This document shows positions 8,484-42,883 of a stretch of 64,000 nucleotides of DNA, one piece after another. Source of the DNA: Candidatus Moraniibacteriota bacterium (lineage in GTDB: Bacteria; Patescibacteriota; Minisyncoccia; Moranbacterales; UBA1568); the NCBI GenBank assembly GCA_037133435.1, contig JBAXOD010000003.1, forward strand, positions 9,502 to 73,501. Reading direction: 5' to 3'. The translations under genes were made by a program, and so were the position numbers. Every line of letters begins with the position of its first letter. The stretch's first letter is position 1. The notes beneath the pieces were generated by a model. It did no database searches. It saw only the letters and a list, made by a program, of their open reading frames with translations, and was not told the DNA's origin.

Positions 8484-8892
8484 GAGCGTACAATACAACC
8501 GGCGTCAATGGGGCCCAGTCCGCAATGCTATGGCGTTGCAGACGGATATCACCTCTGAGCTGGCCTCATGAGAGGCAGGCGCGCCTCGGAAAGAAACGTT
8601 ATGTATGGCTGATAGTCAGCCTTCGCAAATGCATCTTATGAGGGCGGTCCGCCTTCGCAAATGCTTCGGCATGACGCTGTAGAATCCGACGGGTAGGCCC
8701 GTAATAGCCGCAATGAAGGCAAGTGCTTCCCCATTTGGTTTTTGTGAATTGGGGTTTGTGTTTTGCGAAGTGAAGGTGGTACCACGGTTTTTCCGTCCTT
8801 CCCTGTTTTTCGGGGAGGGATTTTTGTTTATAATGAGAAATGGGGTGAAATGGGTGTAAAGGGGGGAATATCGAGCGGAATACGCATTCATT

Positions 8893-9570
8893 ATGATCAA
8901 GCCGGAACGAAAACCATACGGGTATCGGGATTTACTCGCCTATAAGAAGGCCGAGGAATTACAGTTTTCCTGTATGGAATTGACTCATGTGTTTCCGAGG
9001 ATAAAGACCTTGATCGCATTGGCCGATCAGATGGATCGCTCGGCGAGGTCGGTGAAACAGAATATCGTGGAAGGGTGGAAACGGAATTCGACGAAGGAGT
9101 ATTATGATTTCCTGGGATTTTCGATCGGGGCGAATACGGAATTGGAGGAGGATTGTGACGATATTTGGAAGGGGATGTACCCGGAATTGATGAGGGAAAG
9201 GGGTGTAATGGGATGGGAACAAAAGGACAAGATGGGTGAAAGGGAAGTAACGGGTCAGGATCAAGGAGGGGAAATGGGAGCAAAGAGAGGGTTGGATATC
9301 GAGAAATTGAAATTCTATCCGTTGGATGCGGGGTTGCCGAAAGTGGTACGATTGAAATTGAGATGCAAGGAATTGAATTTCCTACTCGATCGGCTTCAAA
9401 AATCGTTGATTGAAAAGATGAAAGAGGAAGAAACCCTTTCATGGAAAGATAAACGATTCCTTGTCAAAGACGTGAAGCGGAAGGAAGAAGACTACGATGA
9501 AAAGATACTTAGGGAAAACGGATTGAAACGCCTTGAGAACGGCCAAGTAGTGGAAGATACCGAAGTATAG
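8893..9570 (+). CDS. four-helix-bundle protein (23S rRNA IVS protein / Avd-like family) with a repetitive Gly/Glu/Lys-rich C-terminal extension
   Basis: The N-terminal ~110 aa (YRDLLAYKKAEELQFSCMELTHVFPR...LADQMDRSARSVKQNIVEGWKR...EYYDFLGFSIGANTELEE) fit the PF05635-like pattern. Imperfect inverted repeats (GGGTAATGG-like motifs) lie at about 8840-8870 and 9625-9657. Confidence 0.6.
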   Translation: MIKPERKPYGYRDLLAYKKAEELQFSCMELTHVFPRIKTLIALADQMDRSARSVKQNIVEGWKRNSTKEYYDFLGFSIGANTELEEDCDDIWKGMYPELMRERGVMGWEQKDKMGEREVTGQDQGGEMGAKRGLDIEKLKFYPLDAGLPKVVRLKLRCKELNFLLDRLQKSLIEKMKEEETLSWKDKRFLVKDVKRKEEDYDEKILRENGLKRLENGQVVEDTEV

Positions 9571-9657
9571 AAAACATCGATATTTCCATTACATCCATTA
9601 TTCTCCTTACTCCTTTTTCCCATTACGCCCTTCCCCCCCATTAACCCCATTTGTCTT

Positions 9658-12600
9658 ATGTCATTCAAGAAAATAGATTCGAAATCCGATTTCCCGAAGA
9701 TGGAAGAAGAGATGCTCGCCTATTGGAAAGAGCATGACGTCTTTTCGAAGTCGGTCGGGAAGGAAGCGCCGAAGGGAGATTTCGTGTTCTATGAGGGTCC
9801 GCCGACGGCGAACGGTAAACCGGGGCTGCACCACGTGCTCGCTCGGGCGTTCAAGGACGCCATTCCGCGCTACAAGACGATGAAGGGATACCGGGTGCGA
9901 CGCAAGGCCGGGTGGGATACGCACGGATTGCCTGTCGAGCTGCAGGTGGAGAAGGCGCTCGGACTGCGGAGCAAGCAGGATATCGAGAACATCATCCCTG
10001 GTGATGCGCGTGCGAGCGTCGTCGAGTTCAACAAAAAGTGCAAGGAATCCGTCTGGGAATATCGGGATCTGTGGGAGAAACTCACGGAACGCATGGGGTA
10101 CTGGGTGGACATGGAATATCCGTATGTCACCTATGAGGACAGCTATATCGAGTCGGTCTGGTGGCAATTTTCCAAGATCGCGGAGCAAAAGGACAAGGAC
10201 GGGAACGAGCTCCTCTACCGGGGACACAAGGTCGTGCCGTACTGTTACCGGTGCGGGACGGCGCTTTCCTCGCACGAGGTGGCGCAGGGATATCAGACCG
10301 TGAAGGATAATTCGGCGTACGTGAAATTCAAAGTGAAGCCGGGACAGAGGATCGGCAATTTCGTTTCGGACGAAAAGACCTATCTCGTCGCCTGGACGAC
10401 GACGCCGTGGACGCTCCCCGGGAACGTGGCCTTGGCGGTGAGAGAGGACGCGGAGTACTCCATAGGGAAACAGGATAAACCCGCTCATCTTGAAGGCGAG
10501 GAGTTTTCTTCGATTCAGGATGATACGGTGATTCTTCTCACTGAAACGGCGAGAACGGTGATCGGTGATGAGAAGGAGCCCTTTATCGCAACGGAAAAGA
10601 TCACCGGCAAGGATTTGTCGGGCACGGAGTATGAACCGCTCTTCGCCACTTCGGAAGAGGACAACGGCAAGATGTATCGCGTCGTGTCCGACGAAGTGGA
10701 CGGTCTGCACTTCATTACGACCGATACGGGGACGGGCATCGTTCATATCGCGCCGGCGTTCGGCGAGGACGATGCGAACGTCGCGAAAGTGAGCGGTCTA
10801 CCGACCTTGCATACCGTGGACCTCGAAGGGAAAATGATGAGCGGGATTCCCGGAGCCGGTGTCGCGGTCAAGAAAAAGAACGACAAGAACAGGTATGTGG
10901 TCGATGAACTCGTCATCGCCGATCTGCGCGAACGCGGGATGCTGCTCAAGGAGGAAATCTATGAACACGAGTATCCGTTCTGTTGGCGGTGCGAGACGCC
11001 ATTGATATATTTCGCCAAGCCGTCGTGGTTCATCGCTATGAGTACGCTCCGTGACGAGCTTTCGGAAAATGCCGAGGCGATATCGTGGGTGCCGGAGCAT
11101 ATCAAGGAGGGGCGTTTCGGGGAGTGGCTCAAGAGCGCCAAGGATTGGGCGATTTCGCGTGATCGATATTGGGGGACGCCGATCCCGGTGTGGGAATGTG
11201 CCGAATGCGGACGTCGTACGGTCATCGATTCGAAAGCGAGACTCGAGGAACTTTCCGGGAAGAAACCGGAGGACCTGCACAAGCCGTATATCGACGAGGT
11301 GGAGTGGCCGTGTGAATGCGGGCAGGGGACATGCCGGCGGACGCCCGAAGTGCTCGACGTGTGGTTCGATTCCGGAGCGATGCCTTTGGCACAGTACGGA
11401 TATCCGGCAAGCGCGACCGACGAGGAGAAAGACCTGATCGGCGAAGGAAAATACTTCCCGGCGGATTATATCAGCGAGGCGATCGATCAGACCCGCGGGT
11501 GGTTCTATACGCTCCATGCGATCGCGACTTTGCTTCGCAAAGCCGGTGTCGTCGTGACGGGGAATGCGTATCGGAACGTCGTCTGTCTGGGACATATTCT
11601 CGATTCGAAGGGAAAGAAGATGTCCAAATCGATTGGGAATGTCGTTGATCCGTTCGAGATGTTCGGGAAATACGGGGCGGATGCGCTCCGGTGGTATCTC
11701 TATTCCATCAATCAGCCGGGATTGCCGAAACGCTTCGACGAGAAAGGTATGCGCGACGTGATGAACCGGATTTTCCGGATGTTGTGGAATTCATATTCGT
11801 TCTTCACGACATATGCGTCGATCGACGGGTGGGAACCCCCCCGCAACTCTTCGGGTAGTGAGGTGGGCGGGCCGAAAGAAGATATGAAGGTTTCGGAAAA
11901 TATCCTTGACCGGTGGATCTTGTCCGAGTTGCAGGTGCTGATCCGAGAAGTCGACGAATCGCTTTCATCATACGACCTGTATTTGCCGACCGCCAAGATC
12001 GAATCGTTCATCGACGAACTGTCGAACTGGTATATCCGACGCAACCGCAAGCGGTTCTGGAAAAACGAGAACGACGGCGACAAGGACTCGGCTTATGCGA
12101 CCCTCTACGAGGTGCTTGTCACGCTTTCGAAACTCATGGCTCCGTTCACCCCGTTCATCTCTGAGGAGATCTATCGGAACCTGACTGCGGGCGAGTCGGT
12201 GCATCTTGCCTTGTGGCCGGAAGCGGATGAAGGAAGGATCGACGAGAAATTGGGGACGAATATGGCGGCTGTCAGGGAAATCGTGTCTGTCGGTTTACAG
12301 AAAAGGGCGGATGCCGGAATCAAAGTAAGGCAGCCTCTCGCCTCGATTTCTCTCGGAATAAAATACGAGGAATTATTCGGCACGATTTTCGATGAGAAGA
12401 ATCAGGATTCTTTCGTGAATATCATAGTGGAGGAGTTGAACGTGAAAAAAGTCGAACTGAACATATTGCAGGCACTGCTGAATGCGAACGAAGATATCCT
12501 TTTGGATCTTGATATAACGAACCAGCTTGCGCTTGAGGGAGAGGCGCGGGAAATCATCCGGGCGATCCAGGAAGGGCGCAAGAAAGCCGGATTCGAAGTG

Positions 12601-12801
12601 AATGATCGGATTACGATCGGCATCATCGGCAAAGAGACGGTATTCGATGGTGATGCGGAAGTTTCCGGATTCGGGGAAGAGATCGCTCACGAGACGCTCG
12701 CGACCGAAGTCGTCCGCGGCGATATCGAGGACGCGGACTATCGCGAAATCGCGAAGATCGAAGGGGAGATATTTTCCTTCGCGCTGAAACGGAATGTATG
12801 A
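9658..12801 (+). CDS. ileS: isoleucyl-tRNA synthetase
   Basis: 1047-aa protein with HIGH-region PPTANGKPGLHHVLARAFKD, KMSKS (KKMSKSIGN) and class Ia editing/CP1 architecture. Confidence 0.92.
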   Translation: MSFKKIDSKSDFPKMEEEMLAYWKEHDVFSKSVGKEAPKGDFVFYEGPPTANGKPGLHHVLARAFKDAIPRYKTMKGYRVRRKAGWDTHGLPVELQVEKALGLRSKQDIENIIPGDARASVVEFNKKCKESVWEYRDLWEKLTERMGYWVDMEYPYVTYEDSYIESVWWQFSKIAEQKDKDGNELLYRGHKVVPYCYRCGTALSSHEVAQGYQTVKDNSAYVKFKVKPGQRIGNFVSDEKTYLVAWTTTPWTLPGNVALAVREDAEYSIGKQDKPAHLEGEEFSSIQDDTVILLTETARTVIGDEKEPFIATEKITGKDLSGTEYEPLFATSEEDNGKMYRVVSDEVDGLHFITTDTGTGIVHIAPAFGEDDANVAKVSGLPTLHTVDLEGKMMSGIPGAGVAVKKKNDKNRYVVDELVIADLRERGMLLKEEIYEHEYPFCWRCETPLIYFAKPSWFIAMSTLRDELSENAEAISWVPEHIKEGRFGEWLKSAKDWAISRDRYWGTPIPVWECAECGRRTVIDSKARLEELSGKKPEDLHKPYIDEVEWPCECGQGTCRRTPEVLDVWFDSGAMPLAQYGYPASATDEEKDLIGEGKYFPADYISEAIDQTRGWFYTLHAIATLLRKAGVVVTGNAYRNVVCLGHILDSKGKKMSKSIGNVVDPFEMFGKYGADALRWYLYSINQPGLPKRFDEKGMRDVMNRIFRMLWNSYSFFTTYASIDGWEPPRNSSGSEVGGPKEDMKVSENILDRWILSELQVLIREVDESLSSYDLYLPTAKIESFIDELSNWYIRRNRKRFWKNENDGDKDSAYATLYEVLVTLSKLMAPFTPFISEEIYRNLTAGESVHLALWPEADEGRIDEKLGTNMAAVREIVSVGLQKRADAGIKVRQPLASISLGIKYEELFGTIFDEKNQDSFVNIIVEELNVKKVELNILQALLNANEDILLDLDITNQLALEGEAREIIRAIQEGRKKAGFEVNDRITIGIIGKETVFDGDAEVSGFGEEIAHETLATEVVRGDIEDADYREIAKIEGEIFSFALKRNV
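11836..11873 (+). repeat. palindromic hairpin element inserted in-frame in ileS
   Basis: The DNA ccccccgcaactcttcgggtagtgaggtgggcgggccg encodes PPRNSSGSEVGGP. It is related to the copies at 4209, 22885, 34620 and 48059. Confidence 0.5.
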
Positions 12802-13307
12802 GCAGGGTAATCATATTTTGTGGCTTACCAGGTTCGGGGAAGACGACTCTAGCATCCGAGGTTTCACGACGGATGAACATATTCTGTCTGCATAAGGATG
12901 CGATCAAGGAACGTTTGTATGGGTATCTGAACGGTACGAGTCTTGAGGATAGTCGAAGGATCGGATTTCATTCCATACGACTCCTCGTTGACCTGGCTGA
13001 TGACGCAATGAAGAACGGAACCGATATTATCATCGAGTCGACGTTCAATCATCCGGACAATGTCGAGCAATTCATAAAATGGGTGGCAGAAGGGCTGGAT
13101 GTAAGAGTAGTTGTGTGTCAGGTGGACGAAGAGGAACGTAAGCGGAGGTTCGTTAGTCGTCCTCGGCATGAGGCGTATCATGGCACGGAGAGAACCTTTT
13201 CAGAGGAGATATTTGATTACGGATTGATGACTGGAAAGAGTCTCGTGCTGGATACCGGAAGACCGCTTGCGGAAATCGTCGGGGAAGTGATGATATTTCT
13301 TTCGTGA
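12798..13307 (+). CDS. P-loop NTPase (AAA_33 / zeta-toxin-like kinase family)
   Basis: Walker A motif GLPGSGKTT near the N-terminus. 169 aa. Its start overlaps the ileS stop. Confidence 0.55.
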   Translation: MSRVIIFCGLPGSGKTTLASEVSRRMNIFCLHKDAIKERLYGYLNGTSLEDSRRIGFHSIRLLVDLADDAMKNGTDIIIESTFNHPDNVEQFIKWVAEGLDVRVVVCQVDEEERKRRFVSRPRHEAYHGTERTFSEEIFDYGLMTGKSLVLDTGRPLAEIVGEVMIFLS

Positions 13308-13328
13308 TGTAATGTTCTTGCCACGCTC

Positions 13329-14045
13329 ATGGAACTCCGACTGACCGCTATCATTCTTCGCAAACGGGAGATAGGCGAGACCGATCGCCTGTATACTTTT
13401 TTCACGCGCGAGATGGGCAAAGTGCAGGCCAGGGCGGTGGGCGTCCGCAAGCCGACCGCCAAGCTCGCCGCCGCGCTTGAGACACTCACGCTCTCGGACG
13501 TGACGGTCGTGCGCGGTCGCGGTATCGGCAAGGTGGCGGGTGCGATCGCGGAGGAATCGTTTCCGGCGCTTCGGGGCGAATACGGCGTTCTTTCGACGGG
13601 GCTCGAAACGGCCGCGGTCTTCGATCGGCTTGTGGGGCTCGAACAGCCCGATCAGACGCTGTTTTTTATGTTGTCGGAGTACCTGTCGCTTTTGGACATG
13701 TTGGCCCGAACGGGACGATCGTCCGAGGTACTACTGCTGACCGAGGCATTTTTCGTGAAAACGCTCGACGAACTCGGATACAGGATAGAGGCGGATGCGT
13801 GTGCGGTATCGGGAATGGCGCTCAACCGGGGAAACCGGTGTCTCTTCAGTCCCGAAGCGGGCGGTATCGTCACGGAGGAACACGCGGGATCGGATGCCGT
13901 GCCGATCGGCGAGAACGCGGTGAAACTCATCCGCCTCTTTCTCGGTAACAGACTCCCGTCCATTCCCAAGATACGTGCCGGAGTCGGTGATCTCGCGGAA
14001 GTGTCCCGGATCCGGAAACTGTTCCTCGATCGGGTGGTCCGATGA
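13329..14045 (+). CDS. recO: DNA repair protein RecO
   Basis: N-terminal OB-fold pattern (AIILRKREIGETDRLYTFFTREMGKVQARAVGVRK) and a C-terminal Cys-containing region (CAVSG...RC). About 238 aa. Confidence 0.7.
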   Translation: MELRLTAIILRKREIGETDRLYTFFTREMGKVQARAVGVRKPTAKLAAALETLTLSDVTVVRGRGIGKVAGAIAEESFPALRGEYGVLSTGLETAAVFDRLVGLEQPDQTLFFMLSEYLSLLDMLARTGRSSEVLLLTEAFFVKTLDELGYRIEADACAVSGMALNRGNRCLFSPEAGGIVTEEHAGSDAVPIGENAVKLIRLFLGNRLPSIPKIRAGVGDLAEVSRIRKLFLDRVVR

Positions 14046-14107
14046 CGGGTACTCCGCTTCGGGGGGATTTTCTGGTATACTGAATATGGAAAATAAAACC
14101 TACCCAT

Positions 14108-16024
14108 ATGGCGTTGCAAGATCTGAACGAGGACCTTCATCAGCACGATTTCAAGAGCGACCGCGACATGCGGACGATATACGACCCGGGAGATACCCGG
14201 AAGGATAGGCTCGAGCAGGTCGATTTTCATGCGAAGAAGTGGGACGAGACGCAGATACCGGTCCGCAAGACCGTCATGCAGCGTTTTTTCGAGTTTTCGA
14301 CGAAACATTGGCGCTGGTATGTGGCCGGGATATTTCTCCTGACCGTCACCGGATTCATATTCAATTTCTCTTTTTTCGGCTCATTCCTGTTCTCGGGCGA
14401 CCGGGTCGCGGTCACGGTCGAAGGTCCGACCGAGGTGGCGAGCGGGGTCGTGGTTTCGTATACCGTTCATTGGGAGAATCGGAACATGCTCGGAGCCAGC
14501 AACGCGCAAGTCATGATCCAATTGCCGGACACGTTCCGGATGGATCCGTCGGAGGGTTTTTCGGTGAACGGAAATACGGCGACGGCTTCGGTCGGAACCA
14601 TTGGGAACTTCGGGTCCGGACAGCTGAAATTTTCCGGAAAATTCTACGGATCGAAAGGGGAACTCTCCTACCTGCATCCCAAAATCCGGTTCTCGCCGGC
14701 GGGTCTTTCGATCGTCTATGAGTCGGAAAGTCAGACCGGCGTCACGATCGCCTCGTCGCCGTTGTTTTTGGAGGTGGTCGGACCCTTGGAAGCCGCATCG
14801 GGCAACGATGTCACGTATGATATAACGTATCGCAACGACAGTGATGTGGCGTATTCGAATCTTCGTCTCGTGACCGAATATCCCGAAGGCTTCGAGTTCC
14901 GTGATGCCGATCCGCGTCCGATCGAGGGTGACAGTAAATGGCGGATCGGAAATCTGGCACCCGGTCAGAGCGGGAAAATCCAGGTACACGGGATATTGGG
15001 CGGGGACAGCAACCAAGGGAAGGTGATGTACGCGTCGATCGGTGTCCTGCAGGGGGATGGATCTTTCGTCACGTATGAGAAAAAGGAGCGGTTGATCCGT
15101 ATGGTCGTGAGTCCGCTCAGGATCGTCCAGAAGGTGAACGGAAAAGCCGATCTCTCCGCGAATCAGGGCGATTTGCTCGCGTATGAACTGACCTACAAGA
15201 ATCAGGGTGATGTCGGACTCCGGAACGTGATCGTCACGCTCGATGTGGATGCCACGCTACTCGACATGACGATGCTGCGGCTCAATAATCAGGGATCGTT
15301 CGATGTCGCGAAAAGCAGGATCACCTGGACCGCGGCCGATTTTCCGGGCTTGGCCTATCTCGGTCCGAACGAGGGCGGGACCATAACGTTCATGGTACCA
15401 GTAAAGGCGAATGTCGCGACGACCGGTCAGACGGGAAAATATCCCACGATCAAGACGACCGCGAAGATCGACAGTCCCGACGTGCCGTTTACGGCGGGAC
15501 AGAATAAGATCATCGTGAGCAGTTCGCTCGAAGTCCGCATCGGTTCGACCGTCGAATTTTCGGTGCTTGGGTTCAATACCGATACGGCGATACCGAATAC
15601 CGGCCCGATTCCGCCGAAAGTCGGTCAGGAGACGACCTACATGCTCCGTATCAGCGCGACGAATTATCTCAATGACCTCGCCGGAACGAAGGTGACGATG
15701 ACGTTGCCGACCGGTTCCCGATATACGGGGAAATTCCTGCCGGAGGATTCCTCTCTGGATTATAATGAGCGTACGAGACAGTTGATATGGGATATCGGAA
15801 GTCTGCCCGGGGGTGGTCGGGTTTCCCGCGACTTGTCGGTGCAGGTCGCCATCACGCCCGGACCGGATCAGATAAACCAGGCGCCGGAACTTCTGCAATC
15901 GGCGATTCTCGATGCGCGTGACACCTTCACCGACGGGGATATCCATCTCACGTTGCCCGGGAAGACGACGGATCTCAAGGAAGACAAAGGTATCCCATGG
16001 AACGGATATTCCGTCGTGCCATAA
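14108..16024 (+). CDS. membrane-anchored protein with repeated DUF11-like beta-sandwich domains
   Basis: One N-terminal TM helix (WRWYVAGIFLLTVTGFIFNFSFFGSFLF) followed by at least 4 repeats of a ~110-aa unit of the form ...VxGPxEAASGNDVTYDITYRNDSDV. Confidence 0.5.
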   Translation: MALQDLNEDLHQHDFKSDRDMRTIYDPGDTRKDRLEQVDFHAKKWDETQIPVRKTVMQRFFEFSTKHWRWYVAGIFLLTVTGFIFNFSFFGSFLFSGDRVAVTVEGPTEVASGVVVSYTVHWENRNMLGASNAQVMIQLPDTFRMDPSEGFSVNGNTATASVGTIGNFGSGQLKFSGKFYGSKGELSYLHPKIRFSPAGLSIVYESESQTGVTIASSPLFLEVVGPLEAASGNDVTYDITYRNDSDVAYSNLRLVTEYPEGFEFRDADPRPIEGDSKWRIGNLAPGQSGKIQVHGILGGDSNQGKVMYASIGVLQGDGSFVTYEKKERLIRMVVSPLRIVQKVNGKADLSANQGDLLAYELTYKNQGDVGLRNVIVTLDVDATLLDMTMLRLNNQGSFDVAKSRITWTAADFPGLAYLGPNEGGTITFMVPVKANVATTGQTGKYPTIKTTAKIDSPDVPFTAGQNKIIVSSSLEVRIGSTVEFSVLGFNTDTAIPNTGPIPPKVGQETTYMLRISATNYLNDLAGTKVTMTLPTGSRYTGKFLPEDSSLDYNERTRQLIWDIGSLPGGGRVSRDLSVQVAITPGPDQINQAPELLQSAILDARDTFTDGDIHLTLPGKTTDLKEDKGIPWNGYSVVP

Positions 16025-16054
16025 AGAGTGATTGAGATTTGAACGGTAACCGAT

Positions 16055-17200
16055 ATGTTCACGATCGGGACGGACAACGGCCACGGCCGCACGGGCACGC
16101 TTCGGACGGGGTCGGGGAGGATTCCTACCCCGTTTTTCATGCCGGATGCGACACGCGCGGCGGTTCGCGGGACGACCGCGGCCGAAATCGCGCAATCCGG
16201 CATCGGGGCGATCGTCGTCAATACGTATCACCTCATGCTTCAGCCCGGGGCGATGCTCGTTCGCGATGCCGGCGGAATCCATCGGTTCATGGGGTGGGAG
16301 GGCCCCGTACTTTCCGATTCGGGAGGATATCAGATCTATTCGCTGATTCATCGGAATCCGGAAATGGGAAAGATCACCGAGGAGGGAGCCGAATTCAAGT
16401 CTGTACTCGACGGCTCGAAACACCTGCTGACACCCGAGCGGGCGATCGCGATCCAATTCGATCTCGGCGTGGATATGATGGTCGTCCTCGATGATCCGCG
16501 TCCGAACGACGTGCCGGAAACCGAAATTTCCGAGGCGGTCGAACGCACGATCCGTTGGGCGAAACGGAGCCGGGAGGAATTCGATCGGCAGATCGCGGCG
16601 CGTGGATTGTCCGACGAGTCCAGGCCGCTTCTCTTCGGGGTCGTGCAAGGCGGTATGTTTCCCGAGTTGCGGACCCGCTGTGCGGAAGGGCTTCGTGAGA
16701 TCGGTTTCGACGGATACGGGTTCGGTGGCCGTCACGTCGATGCGGAGGGGAATTTCCTCGAGGATATAGTGCGTCATACCGCGGCCGTCATTCCCGTAGA
16801 AAGCGTCCGATTCGCGCTCGGAGTGGGTACTCCCGAGGATATCGTCCGCTGTCATGCGCTCGGTTGGGATATGTTCGATTGCGTGATCCCGACGCGGGAA
16901 GGAAGACACGGGAGACTCTTTCTTCGGAAGAAAAAACTGACAACTGACAACTTACAACTGACGACGGGGGATTTTTACGAAACGATCAATATACACAATG
17001 AGCGGTTCACGGCGGATTTCACGCCGATCGATCCGGACTGCGATTGTCCGCTGTGTGCGAACCACACTGCCAGTTACCTGCATCACCTGTTCCGCGTGAA
17101 CGATCCGCTCGGCAGCCGGCTCGCGTCGACGCACAATCTCCGTTTCTACGCGCGACTTATGGAGCAACTGCATAAAGAAAAAGTGAAGACGGAAGAATAA
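16055..17200 (+). CDS. tgt: queuine tRNA-ribosyltransferase
   Basis: TGT motifs PDATRAAVRG, YHLMLQPG, LGVDMMVVLDD and the zinc site CDCPLCANHTASYLHHL. Carries an in-frame heptamer-repeat insertion (KLTTDNLQLTTG). Confidence 0.85.
   Translation: MFTIGTDNGHGRTGTLRTGSGRIPTPFFMPDATRAAVRGTTAAEIAQSGIGAIVVNTYHLMLQPGAMLVRDAGGIHRFMGWEGPVLSDSGGYQIYSLIHRNPEMGKITEEGAEFKSVLDGSKHLLTPERAIAIQFDLGVDMMVVLDDPRPNDVPETEISEAVERTIRWAKRSREEFDRQIAARGLSDESRPLLFGVVQGGMFPELRTRCAEGLREIGFDGYGFGGRHVDAEGNFLEDIVRHTAAVIPVESVRFALGVGTPEDIVRCHALGWDMFDCVIPTREGRHGRLFLRKKKLTTDNLQLTTGDFYETINIHNERFTADFTPIDPDCDCPLCANHTASYLHHLFRVNDPLGSRLASTHNLRFYARLMEQLHKEKVKTEE
16936..16965 (+). repeat. ACAACTN heptamer array inside tgt coding sequence (in frame)
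   Basis: actgacaactgacaacttacaactgacgacggggg encodes LTTDNLQLTTG between the conserved PTREGRHGRLF and DPDCDC segments. The same array type is common in intergenic spacers. Confidence 0.55.
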
Positions 17201-17313
17201 ATGACGTTCCGTATCGTTCGGTTTAAGATGATTTGTTGTCAGTTGCCCGCTCGCGATGACGAGCAGGTCCGCCACGGGGATGACGCGGATAAGTCGTAAG
17301 TCATGCGAATCAT

Positions 17314-20932: not shown

Positions 20933-20948
20933 AGCAAGGAGTGTGAAT

Positions 20949-31385: not shown

Positions 31386-31477
31386 ACTCTTTGAGGAGGG
31401 TAAAGAAAGATCGAGTGAGGGCGAAGTGATGCCTTTTTCTTTTTGTCCGGTTCGGATGACTGATTCCCGTCACATAT

Positions 31478-32257: not shown

Positions 32258-32302
32258 TCGCGGAGTACGAACTCTCGGTTTATGGAAGCCGGCGGTTCGT
32301 AA

Positions 32303-32575
<273 letters not shown>

Positions 32576-32681
32576 GGCTTTCGATCGGCGGCCGGGAGAG
32601 GATTCTTTCATTGGAAAATCCTCCCGACCGTACATCGGGCACCGTGCTTATCAGGTCCAGACACTATTTTTCATCCGACGT

Positions 32682-33167: not shown

Positions 33168-33233
33168 AAAGCACTTAGCAATTGGACAATGAAACAATAT
33201 AACAATAGAGCAATTGAACAATAATCTTCGGCA

Positions 33234-33635
33234 ATGAAAATCTCACCGACACAATACGCGAAAGTCCTGGTCGCGCTCTCATCGGAGGGCGGCGATTCGT
33301 CGCGTGTGGCGGCATCATTCCTCTCGTTCGTGCGTAAACACAAAGGGGCGAAGAAACTTTCCGAGATTGTCCGTGCGGCGGAAACGTTTTCTGATGAGGA
33401 GGCCGGACGCGTGTCCCTTTCGGCGGAGACGGCGATTGAAGCGGATGATGCGATGAGAAAAGATATCGCGAAGAATGCCGCAACGCTGTTTCCGGGAAAG
33501 GACGTGTCGCTTTGTTATGTGGTACGACCGGACATTATCGGAGGAGTACGATTCTCTTCAAATGATGAAGTGGTCGATGGTAGTATCCGGGCGAGACTCC
33601 GGGCACTGAAAGGGAAGATGCGAACGAACAACTGA
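33234..33635 (+). CDS. atpH: F0F1 ATP synthase subunit delta (short)
   Basis: Assigned by position in the operon and a C-terminal ...RPDIIGGVRFSSNDEVVDGSIRARL... OSCP-like motif. Confidence 0.65.
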   Translation: MKISPTQYAKVLVALSSEGGDSSRVAASFLSFVRKHKGAKKLSEIVRAAETFSDEEAGRVSLSAETAIEADDAMRKDIAKNAATLFPGKDVSLCYVVRPDIIGGVRFSSNDEVVDGSIRARLRALKGKMRTNN

Positions 33636-34062
33636 AAGTATTACTAACAACTCACAATTAACAACTGACAACGACCGAAAATACAAGAGACGAAGACACT
33701 ATATCAATCTAACAATTTATCAATATAACGATGTAGCTATCGAGTCAACGATTTGTTTCCGGAACGGTCCGGGGACATAAGTCGATTGGAAGATCTAGTG
33801 ACAGATAACAGATATTGATATAAGCATCCCCTTCTCCCTCTGGGAGAAGGTGGATCGGTACTCCGAGACGGATGAGGGTCGGGTTCAGGGACGGGTCTAA
33901 TGAATTCAGACCCTCACCTGTCAGGAATACCTGACATCCTCTCCCGGAGGGAGAGGTGACAGAAAAAGGGAGTGAGGGAGGGGAAGGTTTTGAAGTGGCA
34001 GACAGAAAGACGGAAAAAGGAACCCTATATCGCAATCTATCATTCATTGATTCAAAAACACT

Positions 34063-35601: not shown

Positions 35602-35738
35602 TCATGATGTTTTCCAGTTTTGTCATCCCGGGCTTGACCCGGGATCCAAGGAGTAGATTCCGGCTCGTGGGCCGGAATGACAGACCGGTGTTGTCGGTTG
35701 TAAGTGGTAAGTTGTAAGTCGTAAGTTCGCGAAGCGCT

Positions 35739-36617
35739 ATGCCGAACGTGGCCGATATCAGACGGAGAATAAAGGGCGTGAAGAGCACGGGGAAAATCAC
35801 CCGGGCTATGGAAATGGTGTCCGCCGCCAAGGTTCGCCGTGCGGTTCAGACTGCAACGGCACTTCGACCGTATGCCGAGGAGGCGATATCAGTACTTCGT
35901 CAGGTCCGCCTCGCATTCCCCGAGAACAAGCATCCGCTCCTTGAAACGCGTGAGACGAACAAACGGATCGTTCTCTTGGTCAGTGGGAATCGTGGACTCG
36001 CCGGGACATTCTATGCGCAACTCTTCCGCGCGCTTCGTGCACACCTGTCGGATATTTCCGGCGAGGTGTCATTCATCACGATCGGCAAGAAGAGCGACGC
36101 GCAGGCGAAACGGATGGAAAAGGACGTACTCGCGTCGTTCCCGGATATTCTCGCTCTTCCCACGGCGGAGTCGGTGCGTCCGGTCGCCAAGATGCTCCTC
36201 GAAGAATATCGTTCCGGTCGGACGGACCGTATCGAGGTGGCCTATACGAACTTCTTTTCCATGATGCGGCAGGAGCCGGTCATACGGACGATCCTCCCGA
36301 TCTCGTCGGAAGAGGCGGAGTCCGAGCTCGAAGTCTCGGGTCGCAAACCGGAAGAGGGGAAATACGCGATCGAACCGGGGCCGGACGCGGTACTCGAGAC
36401 GATGGTGCCGCGGCTCCTCGAGGTCGAGATCTTTCACGCGATCCTCGAATCGAATGCGTCACAAGAAGCGGCGCGCATGATGGCGATGCGAAGCGCGACC
36501 GATGCGGCGACTGAGATGGCTGAGGGACTTACGCTCTCCTATAACCAGCTGCGACAGTCCAAGATCACCCAGGAAATCGCCGAGCTCTCGGCGGGGAAAG
36601 CAGCTTTGGAAAACTGA
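35739..36617 (+). CDS. atpG: F0F1 ATP synthase subunit gamma
   Basis: Starts MPNVADIRRRIKGVKSTGKITRAMEMVSAAKVRRA; ends ...YNQLRQSKITQEIAELSAG. Both are canonical. Confidence 0.85.
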   Translation: MPNVADIRRRIKGVKSTGKITRAMEMVSAAKVRRAVQTATALRPYAEEAISVLRQVRLAFPENKHPLLETRETNKRIVLLVSGNRGLAGTFYAQLFRALRAHLSDISGEVSFITIGKKSDAQAKRMEKDVLASFPDILALPTAESVRPVAKMLLEEYRSGRTDRIEVAYTNFFSMMRQEPVIRTILPISSEEAESELEVSGRKPEEGKYAIEPGPDAVLETMVPRLLEVEIFHAILESNASQEAARMMAMRSATDAATEMAEGLTLSYNQLRQSKITQEIAELSAGKAALEN

Positions 36618-36732
36618 CAACGTACAACGTACAACTAACAACTTATAACTTACAACGGGGAAATCGCAGTTAACAATGAACAACTAACAACTAACGACAG
36701 GGAAATCATAACTAACAACCAACAACGACTGA
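36612..36732 (+). repeat. longest ACAACTN heptamer array in the window
   Basis: ctgacaacgtacaacgtacaactaacaacttataacttacaacgggg ... caactaacaactaacgacaggg ... actaacaaccaacaacgac. Similar arrays lie at about 33625, 35690(-), 38344, 38824(-), 43557, 44591, 45781, 45850(-) and 60233. Confidence 0.6.
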
Positions 36733-36942
36733 AAATGCACACGAAGAAAACAATGTAACAATACGGCAATAGAGTAGTGGAGCAATATGACAATGTAAAT
36801 ATCGAAAGTCGATTTGAAAGGGAGGAAGTGAGAATGAAAAATTAAGTGGATTCTTTGCTCCCACCCCTCAGTCTCGAAGACTCGACAGCTCCCCTCGGGC
36901 AGGGGAGCGGGCGGGAAAAGAATGAACGTAATCTCGTATTAG

Positions 36943-38349
<1,407 letters not shown>

Positions 38350-38462
38350 CAACCAACAACTGACAACGGGGAGCGGGGAGGGGACTGACAACTAACAACT
38401 AACAACTGACCACTGACAACGGGGAATTGGGAGTAGGGGGGTGATTTGAAATAGTAAAAGAT

Positions 38463-38822
38463 ATGGAAAAATTCCGGTTCAGGAAATGGAAAGTGTACAA
38501 TGATTCGCAGGAGCTCTTTTCCCTTATTCTGAAAATTGTTAAGGATCTACCGAAAGAATTCCGTTTCGAAATAGGAAGTCAGATGATCCATGCCGCCTTG
38601 TCGGTAGCGCTTAATATTGCGGAAGGAAGTGGAAAAACTACGGATAAGGAACTGAATCGTTTTCTGAATATTTCCCTCGGCTCCCTCTATGAGACGATGA
38701 CGGCAATGGATGCGTTGAAATTAAACGGGATGGTTCAAGAAGAGCGGTATGATGAGGCGATGAAACAGATAGATGGGATTTCAAACCAGCTTGGTGGGTT
38801 AAAGAAAACACTTGTGAAATGA
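38463..38822 (+). CDS. four-helix-bundle protein (23S rRNA IVS protein / Avd-like family) inserted between atpD and atpC
   Basis: The 119-aa protein (ELFSLILKIVKDLPKEFRFEIGSQMIHAALSVALNIAEGSGKTTDKELNRFLNISLGSLYET...) fits the family. It is flanked by heptamer arrays in opposite orientations: acaactN upstream, ttgtaag downstream. Confidence 0.65.
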   Translation: MEKFRFRKWKVYNDSQELFSLILKIVKDLPKEFRFEIGSQMIHAALSVALNIAEGSGKTTDKELNRFLNISLGSLYETMTAMDALKLNGMVQEERYDEAMKQIDGISNQLGGLKKTLVK

Positions 38823-38850
38823 CGGTTGTAAGTTGTAAGTTGTAAGTTGT

Positions 38851-39294
38851 ATGTTACTCAGACTGAAGATAGTGACGCCGGAACGGCTCGTGCTCGAAGA
38901 GGACGTGTATTCGGTGACGTTGCCGGCCGAGGACGGGGAGATCACTGTATTGCCGGACCATATCCCGTATATCGGGTCGCTCCGGTCCGGGGAGATTTTC
39001 TTTCGCCGAGAGGCGAACGCGGAGCCGGAGAGTCTTGCGACCTCGGGCGGGTTCGTGGAGCTCCACGGCAATGTCCTGTCCGTCATGGCCGATACCGCCG
39101 AACGTGCCGAGGAGATCGACCTCGAACGTGCCGAAGTGGCGAAGAAGAAAGCCGAGGAGCTCAAGGCCGAGCGGCATCTGCTCGACGACGAACAATATGC
39201 CCGTGTCGCGGCGTCTTTGGAGAAAGAATTCGCCCGGCTGCACGTCGCCCACAAACATCGGAGTAAAGGCGGATTCGTCGCTCCGGGACAGTAG
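38851..39294 (+). CDS. atpC: F0F1 ATP synthase subunit epsilon
   Basis: The N-terminal beta-sandwich start (LRLKIVTPERLVLEEDVYSVTLPAEDGEITVLPDHIPYIGSL) is typical, and the gene closes the operon. Confidence 0.8.
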   Translation: MLLRLKIVTPERLVLEEDVYSVTLPAEDGEITVLPDHIPYIGSLRSGEIFFRREANAEPESLATSGGFVELHGNVLSVMADTAERAEEIDLERAEVAKKKAEELKAERHLLDDEQYARVAASLEKEFARLHVAHKHRSKGGFVAPGQ

Positions 39295-39316
39295 GAATAG
39301 AATATCTGGCAACTTT

Positions 39317-39358
39317 GCAGAGTCGCTCCGGTGGAGCGACTCTGCTTGATTTTCGGCT
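39317..39358 (+). terminator. Rho-independent terminator after atpC
   Basis: gcagagtcgctcc-ggtg-gagcgactctgc followed by ttgattttc. Confidence 0.55.
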
Positions 39359-39413
39359 TGAAAAAAGGCGGGGAGTGCGTTAGAGTAGGGGGAGTAATCG
39401 TGATGTTTGCATT

Positions 39414-42400
39414 ATGGAAGGGCGATATATTCCCGAGAATATCGAGGGAAAGTGGCAGAAAAAATGGGAGGAACAAGGGACGTTCCGGCAATACGGCCGT
39501 GAGCGGAAGTTCTATGCGCTTGATATGTTCCCGTACCCTTCGGGGGCCGGGCTGCATGTGGGGCATCCGAAGGGCTATATCGCGACGGATGTGATCGCAC
39601 GGATGAAACAGCTTCAGGGGTATGCGGTGCTGCATCCGATGGGGTGGGACGCATTCGGTCTCCCGGCGGAACAGTACGCGATCAAGAATAAGACGCATCC
39701 GAGCAAGACGACGCGGGAGAATGTCGCCACCTTCAAGGGGCAGCTCGGCCGGCTCGGCTTCACGTACGACTGGGATCGTGAGATCAATACGACCGACCCG
39801 GAGTATTACAAGTGGACACAGTGGATATTTCTGCAGATGCTGAAGAAGGGGCTCGCGTATGAATCGTACGAGCCGATTATCTGGTGTCCGTCGTGCCAGA
39901 CGGGACTCGCGAACGAGGATCTGGAGAACGGCGCGTGCGAGCGGTGCGGGACGATCGTCGAGAAGAAACCGATGCGCCAGTGGGTGCTGCGCATCACCGA
40001 TTATGCTGATCGACTATTGGAAGGGCTCGGCTCGCTTGATTGGCCGGAGTCGATCAAGGAATCGCAGCGCAACTGGATCGGACGGAGCGAAGGAACCGTC
40101 ATACGGTTCCAAATCATAAATCCCAAATTACAATTTCCAAACAAATCCCAAAACACGGATTCGAAATCACAAACGAAGGAGGAATTCATCGAGGTGTTCA
40201 CGACGCGGGTGGATACGCTGTATGGTTGCACCTATGTGGTGGTGGCGCCTGAACATCCTTTGATCAGGGAACAGTTAACAGATAACAGTGAACAGATAGC
40301 AGAGATCAAGAATTGGGAAGAGGTCCGTGCGTATATCGAAGAAACGAAGAAGAAGACCGAGATGGAGCGGACGGCGGAGGGGCGCGAAAAGACCGGCGTT
40401 CGGCTCGAAGGTATCATGGCGGTCAATCCGATAAACGGTGAGGAAGTGCCGGTGTTCGTCGCGGATTATGTGCTCGGTGATTACGGTACCGGCGCGGTGA
40501 TGGCCGTCCCGGCGCACGACACGCGTGATTTCGCCTTCGCGAAAAAATACGACCTGCCGATCAAGAATGTCATCATGCCGCACCTGACCGATAAGAAGAA
40601 CCCTCCGCGGGAAGGGAAGAAGTCCGTCGAACGCAATACCATCCACGCGTTGGTACGGAATCCGAAGGACGGGAAATTCCTGTGTCTAGAGTGGAAGAAT
40701 CATCCATGGACCACATTCATCGTGGGCGGCGTGGAAGACGGTGAGGACATCGTCGAGGCCGCCAAACGGGAAGTGCTCGAGGAGACGGGATTCTCGAATC
40801 TGCGACATATCGGAACCTTGGACAGGAAAGTGCGAAGCGAATATTTCGCGGCGCACAAGGACGAGAATCGGGTCGCGAATACGACAGCGGTTTTGTTCGA
40901 ACTTGAAGACGAATCACGAGAATCGGTCACCGAGGAAGAGGTCGCGAAACACTCGGTCCTCTGGCTTTCGCTCGACGAGATCAGGAATCGCGAAATGACC
41001 TGTGCGGAACTCGATATCTGGCTTGGGTGGCTCGAAGGGAAAGACGATGCGTTCGTTGACGACGGGGCGCTTACGGATTCCAGTGAGTTTTCCGGACTCT
41101 CTTCCGAAGCCGCGCGTGAGAAAATCAACGCGAAACTTGAAGCCGATGGGAACGGGAAGAAGGTCGTGAAATACAAGCTCCGCGAGTGGGTGTTCTCGCG
41201 TCAACGGTATTGGGGGGAGCCGATCCCAGTCGTGCACTGCGAAAAGTGTGGTGTGGTGCCCGTGCCGGAAAACGAACTCCCGGTGTTTCTGCCGGATGTC
41301 GAAAGCTACGAGCCGACGGGAACGGGGGAGTCGCCTTTGGCCGCGATTGAGAGTTGGGTGAATACGACCTGTCCCACGTGCGGCGGGCCCGCGAAACGCG
41401 AGACGAATACGATGCCTCAATGGGCAGGGTCTTCGTGGTACTACCTGCGCTATATCGATCCGTTGAACCAGGACGTGCTCGTCGGCAAGGAACTGGAAAA
41501 GGAATGGATGCCGGTCGACGTGTATGTCGGCGGGGCGGAGCATGCGACACGGCACCTTATTTATGCCCGGTTCTGGCATAAGTTCCTCTTTGATATCGGC
41601 GCGATTTCGACGGACGAGCCGTTTCGGAAACTTTGCAATGTGGGGCTTATCCTCGCCTCCGACGGGCGCAAGATGTCCAAGCGGTGGGGGAACGTCGTCA
41701 ATCCGGACGATATGGTCCGCGATTTCGGCGCGGACGCGATGCGGCTCTACGAGATGTTCATGGGTCCGTTCAACCAGAATATTTCCTGGAACACCGACGG
41801 TGTCGTCGGCACGAGGCGGTTTTTGGAGAAGGTGTGGAAGCTGCAAAACAGACTTACAACTGACAACTTACCACCGACAACAGAAGAATCGGGACTGACA
41901 ACTGACAACTCATCCGCGACATCTCCGTGCGCGGACCCGCTCGCAAAGACGAGCGGGCAACCGACAAAAATAGATTGCCTTCTTCATCGGACTATCGTGA
42001 AGGTGATGGAGGACATCGAAGCTATGCGGTTCAATACGGCAGTGAGCACACTTATGATCCTTGTGAACGCGTTCGAGAAGGAAGGAACGATCACGAAGGA
42101 ATCATACGGCATCTTCCTCTTGCTCCTGTCGCCGTTCGCTCCGCATATCGCGGAAGAGCTGTGGGCCGGACTTGGAAATCCCGAATCGATATTCCTCTCG
42201 ACATGGCCCGTGGCCGACCTGGCCTTGCTTGTGGAAGATACCGTGAAAATCGTCGTCTCGGTCAACGGCAAGGTCCGCGATACGTTCGAAGTACCCGCAG
42301 ACGCGACCGAAGACGATCTGAAAGCGAAAGCGTTCGCGAGTGACAAAATCGCCAAGTTCCTCGACGGCCGGGAGCCCAAGCGCGTCATCGTCGTTCCTGG

Positions 42401-42425
42401 GAAATTGGTGAACGTGGTGGTATGA
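39414..42425 (+). CDS. leuS: leucyl-tRNA synthetase with an embedded NUDIX domain
   Basis: HIGH region (GAGLHVGHPKGY), KMSKS (KMSKRWGN), CP1 editing domain. A ~150-aa NUDIX-fold segment containing GGVEDGEDIVEAAKREVLEETG lies between ...KYDLPIKNVI and ...SSEFSGLSSEAAREKI. A heptamer/hairpin insertion (LTTDNLPPTTEESGLTTDNSS...PLAKTSGQP) sits near the anticodon-binding domain. 1003 aa. Confidence 0.9.
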   Translation: MEGRYIPENIEGKWQKKWEEQGTFRQYGRERKFYALDMFPYPSGAGLHVGHPKGYIATDVIARMKQLQGYAVLHPMGWDAFGLPAEQYAIKNKTHPSKTTRENVATFKGQLGRLGFTYDWDREINTTDPEYYKWTQWIFLQMLKKGLAYESYEPIIWCPSCQTGLANEDLENGACERCGTIVEKKPMRQWVLRITDYADRLLEGLGSLDWPESIKESQRNWIGRSEGTVIRFQIINPKLQFPNKSQNTDSKSQTKEEFIEVFTTRVDTLYGCTYVVVAPEHPLIREQLTDNSEQIAEIKNWEEVRAYIEETKKKTEMERTAEGREKTGVRLEGIMAVNPINGEEVPVFVADYVLGDYGTGAVMAVPAHDTRDFAFAKKYDLPIKNVIMPHLTDKKNPPREGKKSVERNTIHALVRNPKDGKFLCLEWKNHPWTTFIVGGVEDGEDIVEAAKREVLEETGFSNLRHIGTLDRKVRSEYFAAHKDENRVANTTAVLFELEDESRESVTEEEVAKHSVLWLSLDEIRNREMTCAELDIWLGWLEGKDDAFVDDGALTDSSEFSGLSSEAAREKINAKLEADGNGKKVVKYKLREWVFSRQRYWGEPIPVVHCEKCGVVPVPENELPVFLPDVESYEPTGTGESPLAAIESWVNTTCPTCGGPAKRETNTMPQWAGSSWYYLRYIDPLNQDVLVGKELEKEWMPVDVYVGGAEHATRHLIYARFWHKFLFDIGAISTDEPFRKLCNVGLILASDGRKMSKRWGNVVNPDDMVRDFGADAMRLYEMFMGPFNQNISWNTDGVVGTRRFLEKVWKLQNRLTTDNLPPTTEESGLTTDNSSATSPCADPLAKTSGQPTKIDCLLHRTIVKVMEDIEAMRFNTAVSTLMILVNAFEKEGTITKESYGIFLLLLSPFAPHIAEELWAGLGNPESIFLSTWPVADLALLVEDTVKIVVSVNGKVRDTFEVPADATEDDLKAKAFASDKIAKFLDGREPKRVIVVPGKLVNVVV
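41851..41960 (+). repeat. ACAACTN heptamer array plus CCCGCTCGCAAAGACGAGCGGG hairpin, in-frame in leuS
   Basis: acttacaactgacaacttaccaccgacaac...ggactgacaactgacaactcatcc followed by gacccgctcgcaaagacgagcgggcaacc. Confidence 0.55.
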
Positions 42426-42450
42426 AAAAATGAAAAATTGAGATATAAAA

Positions 42451-42831
42451 ATGGAAAATGACAAAGAAAAATTCAAAGTTAAATTTAAAAGACGTCTCTA
42501 TGTATTCGCTCTTAGTATAGTGAAATGTATCGACACGCTTCCTCGTGGGACCGTATCAGACGTACTTGGAAAACAGCTCTTAAGAAGTGGAACGAGCGTA
42601 TTGGCGAATTATATTGAAGCGCAGGCGGCAAGTTCAAAAAAAGATTTCAGGAATTTCTTCTCATATTCACTGAAGTCGGCAAATGAATCAAAAGTGTGGA
42701 TTGTTCTGTTGAAGGATTCCGGAAAAATCGGGACAGAAAAGGCGGATATGCTTCTCAAGGAATGTATCGAGATATCGAATATACTTGCGAAAAGTGTCAT
42801 TACCATGAAGGAGAATGAAAAGAAGAAGTAA
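42451..42831 (+). CDS. four-helix-bundle protein (23S rRNA IVS protein / Avd-like family)
   Basis: 126-aa protein (YVFALSIVKCIDTLPRGTVSDVLGKQLLRSGTSVLANYIEAQAASSKKDFRNFFSYSLKSANESKVW). An inverted repeat gaaaaat(t/g)gagatataaaaatg lies at about 42426-42455 and, as reverse complement, at about 42850-42880. Confidence 0.6.
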   Translation: MENDKEKFKVKFKRRLYVFALSIVKCIDTLPRGTVSDVLGKQLLRSGTSVLANYIEAQAASSKKDFRNFFSYSLKSANESKVWIVLLKDSGKIGTEKADMLLKECIEISNILAKSVITMKENEKKK

Positions 42832-42883
42832 CTGACCGTCAGAAAGTTTTCATTTTTATATCTCCATTTTTCACTTTTATCCT

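Follow-up and report, generated by a model that had tools for sequence, protein, structure and literature searches.

The window analysed here is a stretch of 64 kb from a candidate phyla radiation bacterium of Moranbacteria-like type, whose nearest species representatives stand at 75–80% AtpD identity. Its base composition is 54% G+C, and nearly every gene of the region lies on the plus strand. It contains three small genes for four-helix-bundle proteins, one upstream of ileS, one between atpD and atpC and one between leuS and rnt, each bracketed by a short tandem repeat array on the left and its inverted complement on the right (gene plus arms are henceforth referred to as cassettes 1 to 3; Table 1). 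Every cassette fills a single gap exactly, i.e. from a terminator to ileS, from the atpD stop to the atpC start and from the leuS stop to the rnt start.

Table 1. Positions of the cassettes and related features in the window.
Feature	Position	Strand	Description
Cassette 1 left arm	8830–8869	+	G-rich tandem motif AATGGGGTGA / AATGGGTGTA / AAGGGGGGAA
Cassette 1 open reading frame (ORF)	8893–9570	+	225 aa, long-form four-helix-bundle protein with C-terminal extension
Repeat-encoded disordered hypervariable loop in cassette 1 ORF	9187–9291	+	left-arm G-rich motif, complementary to right arm
Cassette 1 right arm	9586–9659	+	C-rich; complementary to left arm and internal repeats; ends at ileS ATG (9658)
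Cassette 2 left arm	38343–38420	+	two blocks of CAACTNA heptamers
Cassette 2 ORF	38463–38822	+	119 aa, four-helix-bundle protein, atpD/atpC junction
Cassette 2 right arm	38825–38855	+	(GTTGTAA)n; overlaps atpC ATG (38851)
Cassette 3 left arm	42426–42457	+	A-rich AAAATGN-type array; holds the ORF's own ATG (42451)
Cassette 3 ORF	42451–42831	+	126 aa; tight ~123-aa subfamily over many candidate phyla
Cassette 3 right arm	42847–42878	+	ends 5 nt before rnt ATG (42884)
Forward and reverse CAAC arrays around ~130-nt GC-rich hairpin element, no ORF	43572–43790	+	
Avd of the diversity-generating retroelement (DGR)	52053–52442	-	PF22296; for contrast, outside the cassette class
ORF-less hairpin, forward and reverse CAAC heptamer arrays	60240–60336	+	mini version of cassette 2 arms

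All three ORFs match PF05635 (23S_rRNA_IVP; E = 1.6e-15, 2.7e-26 and 2.2e-20 for cassettes 1, 2 and 3, all above the cutoff of 33.8 bits) and also exceed the cutoff of TIGR02436 ('four helix bundle protein'), in agreement with a preliminary description of this DNA that had placed them in the family of the 23S rRNA intervening-sequence proteins. The exact proteins carry the NCBI name 'four helix bundle protein [Candidatus Moraniibacteriota bacterium]'. Their Pfam and NCBIfam matches are to four-helix-bundle families only, with no recombinase or transposase among them, and they match no PADLOC defence-system model. The nearest solved relatives, 2rld and 2gsc, were both deposited with five chains, and XCC0516 has been reported as a homopentamer. 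A phmmer search of all six-frame ORFs found no fourth member of the family in the window. Pairwise BLASTP among the three proteins and the Avd of the DGR gave nothing, even for cassette 2 against cassette 3, and phmmer and family models were used for protein relationships in its place.

Anatomy and pairing of the arms

The inverted sequences first noted around each ORF were reproduced by alignment and folding, and their complementarity exceeds chance in shuffled sequence. Cassette 3 is the cleanest case: its arms, 32 nt long and 91% complementary, delimit a cassette of 453 nt in total, the first base of which directly follows the leuS stop (42425). The left arm of cassette 2 consists of (CAACTNA)n blocks at 38343–38367 and 38384–38420; the atpD stop codon (38347–38349) lies inside the first heptamer, and pairing with the right arm takes the form of 6-bp helices broken by single A-A mismatches. 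Because of this mismatch at every seventh base, a repeat search with a 7-nt seed overlooked cassette 2, and its arrays were recovered with Tandem Repeats Finder and folding. The tandem units of cassette 1 are 9–10-mers and not heptamers. Its pairing arms (~8830–8869 / 9622–9659) are 28–40 nt long and ~75% complementary, and the gap that they occupy runs from 9 nt past a terminator-like hairpin (8795–8821 plus T-run) to the ileS ATG. The G-rich motif of cassette 1 occurs nowhere else in the 64 kb and the motif of cassette 3 is likewise private. For cassette 2 the inverted heptamer arrays are present as first described, but the CAAC heptamers are not private to it (see below).

The Pfam match of the cassette 1 protein covers helices 1–3 only. 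In its AlphaFold2 model (predicted local distance difference test score, pLDDT, 79) helices span residues 15–32, 38–63, 67–92 and 150–179, with a disordered loop at residues 109–132 whose length is hypervariable among homologs. We considered and rejected the idea that this is a decayed gene, since the long form is full-length in >100 homologs. Upstream of cassette 1 and ileS lies a T-box-like leader (8629–8826, +) that scores 23.9 bits (E 0.002–0.006) against Rfam RF00230, far short of the gathering score (93). Its stem I is very short, it contains the motif AAGGUGGUACCACGG, and the hairpin and T-run mentioned above form its terminator; the corresponding leader of a relative (L178, 1472–1618) reaches 33 bits and heads its ileS operon. 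If the leader is real, cassette 1 would probably separate a riboswitch from the gene that it controls.

Flank complementarity was scored with composition-robust alignment scores against background genes from crude gene calling. RNAduplex energies were dropped as a background statistic because base composition dominates them, the AT-rich arms of cassette 3 scoring weakly. Dinucleotide shuffles of the right flank reached the observed score in 6/2000 cases for cassette 1 and in 0/2000 for both cassettes 2 and 3. Among the 59 crudely called genes of the window the cassettes rank 1, 3 and 4, and rank 2 is atpG, itself situated between heptamer arrays. In a comparison over ~1.9 Mb from candidate phyla, the median score was 16.5 for the 18 loci with a flagged four-helix-bundle gene and 7.0 for ~1780 other genes (Mann-Whitney p = 6e-9, a value that overstates independence since many cassettes are related). 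Two of the 18 (L138 and L178) are represented by wrong-strand ORFs from the crude caller; 15 of the 16 correctly called loci stand at or above the 95th percentile.

The terminal stem closes all three cassettes of the window in both minimum-free-energy and centroid RNA folds, and its length agrees with the ~20 bp or more expected of ORF-bearing intervening sequences. Flank duplexes of 26–79 bp, reaching from the previous stop to the next start, were found in 17 cassettes. The left arm is purine-rich on the sense strand in 26 of 28 cassettes, and a polarity of this kind points to a constraint linked with the transcript or with the ORF start. No plus-strand terminator-like site was found between atpD and atpC or between leuS and rnt, which makes co-transcription with the host genes the simplest reading. 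A terminator-like hairpin of the atp operon stands after atpC (39317–39345).

Distribution and inheritance

In the 147 loci that hold both genes, the median gap between atpD and atpC is 1 nt. The cassette at this junction is sporadic: in the Moranbacteria-like relatives L003–L011 the two genes are adjacent or at most ~110 nt apart, with no gene between. Similarly, leuS and rnt overlap in L008. The order atpD, four-helix-bundle gene, atpC, which had been called unusual, is so against this background but it is not unique, having arisen in at least three lineages. Four-helix-bundle genes also separate atpD from atpC in L037 and L138, and atpA from atpG in L091, the inverted arrays differing in each. 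Scans of genomes and metagenomes yielded no strain-level empty sites, the best matches being 80% for AtpD and 65% for AtpC.

The closest homologs of cassette 2 (94, 82 and 72% identity, the first in the close relative L163) all stand at the atpD/atpC junction with their inverted arrays intact, and the right array is almost invariant in L163, L165 and L166 although the protein falls to 72% identity. An 80%-identical homolog of cassette 1 is likewise found directly upstream of ileS, with a purine-rich (G-rich) stretch upstream and a mostly pyrimidine-rich one downstream, and a 57%-identical homolog occupies another operon. Since cassettes 1 and 2 have been kept at one site within the clade, movement must be rare. 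Such same-site inheritance in close relatives is what stable ancestral genes would give, but the inverted arrays are conserved along with the genes, so that stable ancestry does not refute the cassette design.

At greater distance the sites change and the arm types do not. A 64%-identical relative of cassette 2 in a Paceibacterota genome lies between RNase H and a DGR target and is flanked by (TAACTAA/CAACCGA)n and (GTTGTAN)n, i.e. by CAAC-type heptamers, which are confined to its own flanks in the ~5 kb of the locus examined. The cassette 3 subfamily (~123 aa, 62–70% identity, 2609 matches at E <= 1e-5) ranges over Moran-, Kaiser-, Wolfe-, Doudna-, Howlett- and Magasanikbacteria and Paceibacterota. 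Six distinct cassette-3-type copies were found at unrelated sites (a glycosyltransferase pair, lexA/uvrA, type IV secretion genes, a large surface protein and its neighbour, and others), all co-oriented with the neighbouring genes. Common to all six are a left end in which the AAAATGN-type array runs into ATGGAAAATGACAA ('AAAATGnAAAATGnAAAnATCAAA/ATGGAAAATGACAA') and a right end of TTGTCATTTTnCATTTTGATTTTTACATTTT (TAA|TTTTGyATTTTACATTGTCATTTTnCATTTTGATTTTTACATTTTA). The arms overlap the first 14 nt of the ORF, and the following gene starts at +53 to +57 in four of the six. Folding the joined arms to a consensus yields 39 pairs, and 4 of these show compensatory changes. Inspection of the six ends by eye revealed no target-site duplication.

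After its leuS stop, L163 carries a solo 27-nt left arm of cassette 3 ('AAAATGAAAAATTGAaATATAAAAA'), with a terminator and then an unrelated ORF behind it. L192 and L197 encode the same cassette-3-type protein in two different contexts, and their DNA identity extends to the very end of the right arm and no further; whether they represent a second copy or a join made at a repeat during assembly, the arm end is a repeat boundary. The recurrence of the same arm types at unrelated sites, both for cassette 3 and for the relative of cassette 2, means that each protein subfamily has its own repeat type. Judged from these comparisons, the arms travel with the gene, and arms plus ORF appear as one heritable unit.

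Other small genes share such positions. At the atpD–atpC junction of other genomes we found GxxExxY (TIGR04256) genes with inverted arrays, along with further small genes. The GxxExxY genes at L043 2449–2924 and L109 737–1234, in two other candidate-phyla lineages, are bracketed by inverted short repeats, e.g. (TACTAAA)n, which suggests a wider guild of small intercistronic cassettes. On one candidate-phyla contig (L176, 2068–4547), three four-helix-bundle genes of different subfamilies alternate with type IV secretion genes (gene X, then prgI, a traC-like gene and virB4, with a four-helix-bundle gene in each interval); two of the three have flank scores of 17–18 and the first (2068–2469) only 11.5.

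Outside the candidate phyla, tblastn against plasmids located four-helix-bundle genes between cas6 and cas4, cas10 and cmr3, nrdB and nrdA, and type IV secretion genes in cyanobacteria, as well as one in Riemerella (Bacteroidota). Inverted tandem arrays scoring at least 14.5 flank 10 of the 14 plasmid loci, the background median being 7.5 (25 neighbouring genes). Examples are (TAGGGAG)8 / (CTCCCTA)5 in Nostoc edaphicum (score 31.5), (GGGAACA)n / (TGTTCCC)n in Nostoc C052 (30) and (GGGTGTA)n / (TACACCC)n in Calothrix brevissima (26.5). In Nostoc PCC 7120 (alpha and gamma copies) the tandem array is confined to the downstream side, and flanking arrays are absent altogether from the locus of Calothrix PCC 7716. 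In all, the repeat-bounded design, with differing motifs, was found in ~20 independent contexts in three phyla.

Intervening-sequence-like cassettes and the alternatives

The 23S rRNA intervening sequence of Coxiella is 428–444 nt long and closed by a 28-bp terminal stem. It carries two to three tandem GACAGAT heptamers, variable in number among strains, directly before the ATG of the S23p ORF, and RNase III cuts it at the first repeat (PMC4990558). The cassettes resemble such ORF-bearing elements (Coxiella burnetii, Leptospira; S23p) in protein family (PF05635), in size (cassette 3), in stem length (~28–32 bp), in the variable-copy heptamers just upstream of the ATG (CAACTNA in cassette 2, AAAATGN in cassette 3), in their sporadic distribution and in the existence of short ORF-less versions. 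They differ in lying between protein cistrons (one of them probably downstream of a T-box-like leader and upstream of ileS) and not in helix 9, 25 or 45 of 23S rRNA; no rRNA gene is present in the window. Moreover, cleavage of a cassette would sever an mRNA, whereas rRNA fragments stay together in the ribosome. As every sequence-level feature of intervening sequences was found except the rRNA location, we describe the cassettes as intervening-sequence-like and do not file them as rRNA intervening sequences. ORFs of the 23S_rRNA_IVP family have also been found in 16S and 23S rRNA insertions of candidate-phyla bacteria (PMC11270868), which fits one element class resident in either kind of transcript. 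The terminal stems, the family match and the occurrence of arms and ORF as one unit at many unrelated sites bear out the proposal that these are repeat-bounded ORF cassettes built like rRNA intervening sequences, and we consider it likely that each of the three loci is a cassette of the intervening-sequence type set in mRNA rather than rRNA.

Under this reading, a cassette consists of a PF05635/TIGR02436 ORF with neither promoter nor terminator, a left arm made of a purine- or A-rich short tandem array and a right arm that is its inverted complement. Since it is co-oriented with its neighbours and fills one intercistronic gap, the host operon would transcribe it. In the transcript the arms would pair as a stem of 30–70 bp, and the stem-loop would place the downstream start beside the stop or terminator that precedes the cassette. 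RNase III may then cut the stem, by analogy with the 23S intervening sequences of Coxiella, Leptospira and Salmonella, freeing the four-helix-bundle mRNA and parting the flanking cistrons. In the cassette 3 subfamily the stem would also bury the ORF's own ATG, and translation may need upstream ribosomes or processing. The unit appears at unrelated sites, persists vertically for a long time and decays to solo arms or ORF-less hairpins.

Several points weigh against this picture. What the sequences show directly is the anatomy with its statistics, the occurrence of arms and ORF as a unit, the sporadic distribution and the predicted stems; co-transcription and RNase III cleavage of the cassettes are steps that we infer, as is a role of the four-helix-bundle protein at the repeats. 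Whole-cassette folding z-scores are modest (-2.4, 0.1 and -2.2), and G-U versus A-C mismatches (20 versus 14, p = 0.2) give no significant sign of selection at the RNA level. The p-values overstate independence, given the relatedness of many of the 28 cassettes, and the background genes came from a crude calling procedure. Relatives of 72–94% identity keep cassettes 1 and 2 at a single site, so that movement is rare at best, and the L192/L197 pair may be an assembly chimera. Among the plasmid loci, the gene at the cas6/cas4 junction of Pseudanabaena galeata (L214, 2277–2956) departs from the stem model in being flanked by direct arrays, (AAAAGCT)14 upstream and (AAAAGCC)10 downstream; three of the 14 show no flank complementarity above background, and two cyanobacterial copies are antisense to their neighbours. 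Finally, several candidate-phyla genomes have inverted tandem arrays and REP-like (repetitive extragenic palindromic) hairpins around core genes (atpD, atpF, atpG) or with nothing between them, and the arms could therefore be a general operon-spacer feature where four-helix-bundle genes settle.

It is possible, if rather unlikely, that the cassettes are instead mobile elements acting at the DNA level, similar to miniature inverted-repeat transposable elements (MITEs) or other non-autonomous transposons, the arms serving as terminal inverted repeats for a recombinase provided in trans or for the four-helix-bundle protein, and the RNA stem being incidental. Terminal inverted repeats at many sites, the solo arm, the ORF-less derivatives, the identical copy in L192 and L197 that breaks at the arm end and the outcome of the mismatch test would all suit such elements, and the idea of a transposition remnant has been raised for rRNA intervening sequences as well (PMC4990558). 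Against this, no transposase lies in or beside any cassette, inspection by eye showed no target-site duplication, the arms are variable-copy tandem arrays and not fixed ends, and both the purine polarity (26/28) and the placement from stop to start fit a constraint at the transcript level better. A DNA-level origin and the RNA model can in any case coexist. MITEs and REP or bacterial interspersed mosaic elements are likewise short, multi-copy intergenic inverted-repeat elements with ORF-less forms, but the cassettes carry a conserved ORF and arms of subfamily-specific tandem arrays, with neither transposase nor target-site duplication identified. With integron gene cassettes they share a promoterless single ORF, an imperfect inverted-repeat site, co-directional insertion and a presumed dependence on an upstream promoter; they differ in having no integrase, attC or attI, and in being single insertions across housekeeping operons that form no array.

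We think it unlikely that the arms are a host feature, i.e. inverted-array hairpins acting as intercistronic processing or insulating sites, in the loops of which small genes (four-helix-bundle, GxxExxY, DUF559, NYN) collect. This would account for the CAAC heptamers in many gaps of the window, ORF-less hairpins included. Dispersed intergenic CAAC/GTTG arrays lie at 16935–16962, 33643–33672, 35690–35727, 36617–36726, 43572–43602, 43740–43790, 44596–44614, 45903–45930 and 60240–60336, often terminating in ACGGGG, and among ~160 candidate-phyla atp loci the CAAC motif is limited to the clade of the window (the window itself, L163, L165 and L166). It would also account for the ORF-less inverted arrays of the atpD–atpC spacer in L005, L007, L017, L024 and L084, the arrays around atpD, atpF and atpG in other genomes and those beside the GxxExxY genes at the atpD–atpC junction. 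It leaves unexplained, however, why the motif tracks the protein subfamily across phyla and sites: the arm sequence of cassette 3 is conserved over phyla and unrelated locations and overlaps the first 14 nt of the ORF, the distant relative of cassette 2 has the same heptamer type at another site and at its own flanks only (~5 kb examined), and the motifs of cassettes 1 and 3 are private in 64 kb.

Highly improbable is the view that these are ordinary small accessory genes with functionless arms, their flank complementarity stemming from low-complexity intergenic sequence and shared ancestry. The stable inheritance of cassettes 1 and 2 at one site, the modest folding z-scores and the phylogenetic non-independence of the samples could be cited in its favour, but it conflicts with the shuffle tests and rank statistics, with the near-invariance of the cassette 2 right arm among homologs whose protein identity is as low as 72% and with the same design recurring, with different motifs, in the ~20 contexts. 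Least probable of all, and rejected, is the earlier suggestion that the three genes are orphan Avd paralogs serving the nearby DGR: PF05635 and Avd share a fold (PMC10053308), cassette 2 gives sub-threshold matches to bAvd and NF033474 and one of its relatives adjoins a DGR, but the DGR has its own PF22296 Avd, the cassette proteins lie 9–43 kb from its reverse transcriptase and have no detectable pairwise similarity to the window Avd, their best Avd-family scores (cassette 2) are 29.4 bits against a cutoff of 80 for NF033474 and 17.8 against 40 for PF22296, and no reverse transcriptase gene was called or annotated in the examined flanks of 15 of the 16 other cassette sites covered. The small four-helix-bundle fold is common to both, and Pfam and CDD group the families together; the cassettes differ from bAvd (PF22296 / NF033474) in standing below the family cutoffs and away from any reverse transcriptase, template repeat (TR) or variable repeat (VR).

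The intervening-sequence-type reading invites comparison with the short tandemly repeated repetitive (STRR) sequences of cyanobacteria, which were reportedly described by Mazel et al. in 1990 as short tandemly repeated heptamers in intergenic DNA. The cassettes are similarly associated with intergenic tandem heptamers, and the STRR kind includes the arrays next to the four-helix-bundle genes of Nostoc, Calothrix and Anabaena plasmids; the host of the window differs in being a candidate-phyla bacterium and not a cyanobacterium. We know of no description of STRRs as paired inverted arms around a four-helix-bundle gene. A speculative synthesis, which we would not expect to hold in full, is that PF05635 genes and inverted heptamer arrays form one widespread class of intercistronic element, with rRNA intervening sequences as its rRNA-resident subset and many STRR arrays and candidate-phyla heptamer hairpins as ORF-less relics. 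The protein, as a pentamer, might bind its own repeat type, one repeat per subunit as in TRAP, and so control RNase III access or translation, or it might drive spread of the element, possibly via an RNA intermediate given the kinship with Avd.

To our knowledge, where rRNA intervening sequences and their S23p ORF come from and what purpose they serve have been open questions since ~1990, and the same holds for the STRR heptamers; the pattern seen across phyla offers a handle on both of these old puzzles. If the same cassette lives between ordinary genes, the rRNA location would be incidental and the element could be studied in mRNAs, where the effects of cleavage on neighbouring genes are measurable. 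The neighbours concerned in the window would be the atp operon and three housekeeping genes, as well as what is probably an ileS leader under T-box control. The cognate repeat array would become a concrete candidate partner for a very large protein family of unknown function, the cassettes would be sites of RNA processing within operons of the reduced candidate-phyla genomes, and annotators would be warned that 'four helix bundle protein' genes in conserved operons are insertions. In the literature that could be searched, which is incomplete so that a prior description is possible, we found no account of repeat-bounded four-helix-bundle cassettes in operons or of a link to STRR-type heptamers.

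The retroelement and further features of the window

The bona fide DGR Avd recognised at ~52.1 kb in the preliminary description stands. Besides its PF22296 match, the VR (51543–51661) and the TR (51925–52043) differ at 16 positions, 16/16 of which are at TR adenines, and the reverse transcriptase has a PF00078 match and, like TR, VR and this Avd, falls within 51.5–53.5 kb. The Avd gene runs antiparallel to the target gene, VR, TR and reverse transcriptase and overlaps the first 69 nt of the longest reverse transcriptase ORF (52374–53474, +); translation of the reverse transcriptase may start at a Met near 52449.

Several other features of the window and its relatives involve repeats of the kinds described above. 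A GC-rich hairpin element (ccacccctcagtc.cgaagac..gacagctcccctcgggcaggggagc) has two copies in the window, at ~36868–36930 and ~43650–43705. In the atpG–atpD gap of L163, a DUF559 (Vsr-like) gene has CTCTCCCnnnGGGAGAG hairpins of similar type and a tandem array of 13-mers at its flanks, and for this reason the window copy looks like a remnant of another cassette type. The window has a gap of ~390 nt from the heptamer array after atpH to the atpA start (33636–34062) where L163 has ~100 nt, and this could be a decayed insert. ORF-less inverted-array hairpins such as (TTTTCAA)n...(TTGAAAA)n fill the atpD–atpC spacer, with no inserted gene, in the five loci listed above (L005 to L084).

The window leuS (39414–42425) encodes a LeuRS of 1003 aa with an inserted NUDIX domain, according to precomputed Pfam matches; the LeuRS of L163 has 816 aa and no NUDIX match on record. 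Within leuS, in-frame CAAC heptamers at 41852–41910 encode '...LTTDNLPPTTEESGLTTDN...', a heptamer stretch also present in L165. A tmRNA gene (3813–4210, -; tag ANIVSKVKMAFANAFSPSFASALA) and a tRNA-Leu(CAA) gene (45616–45700, -) are both ordinary.

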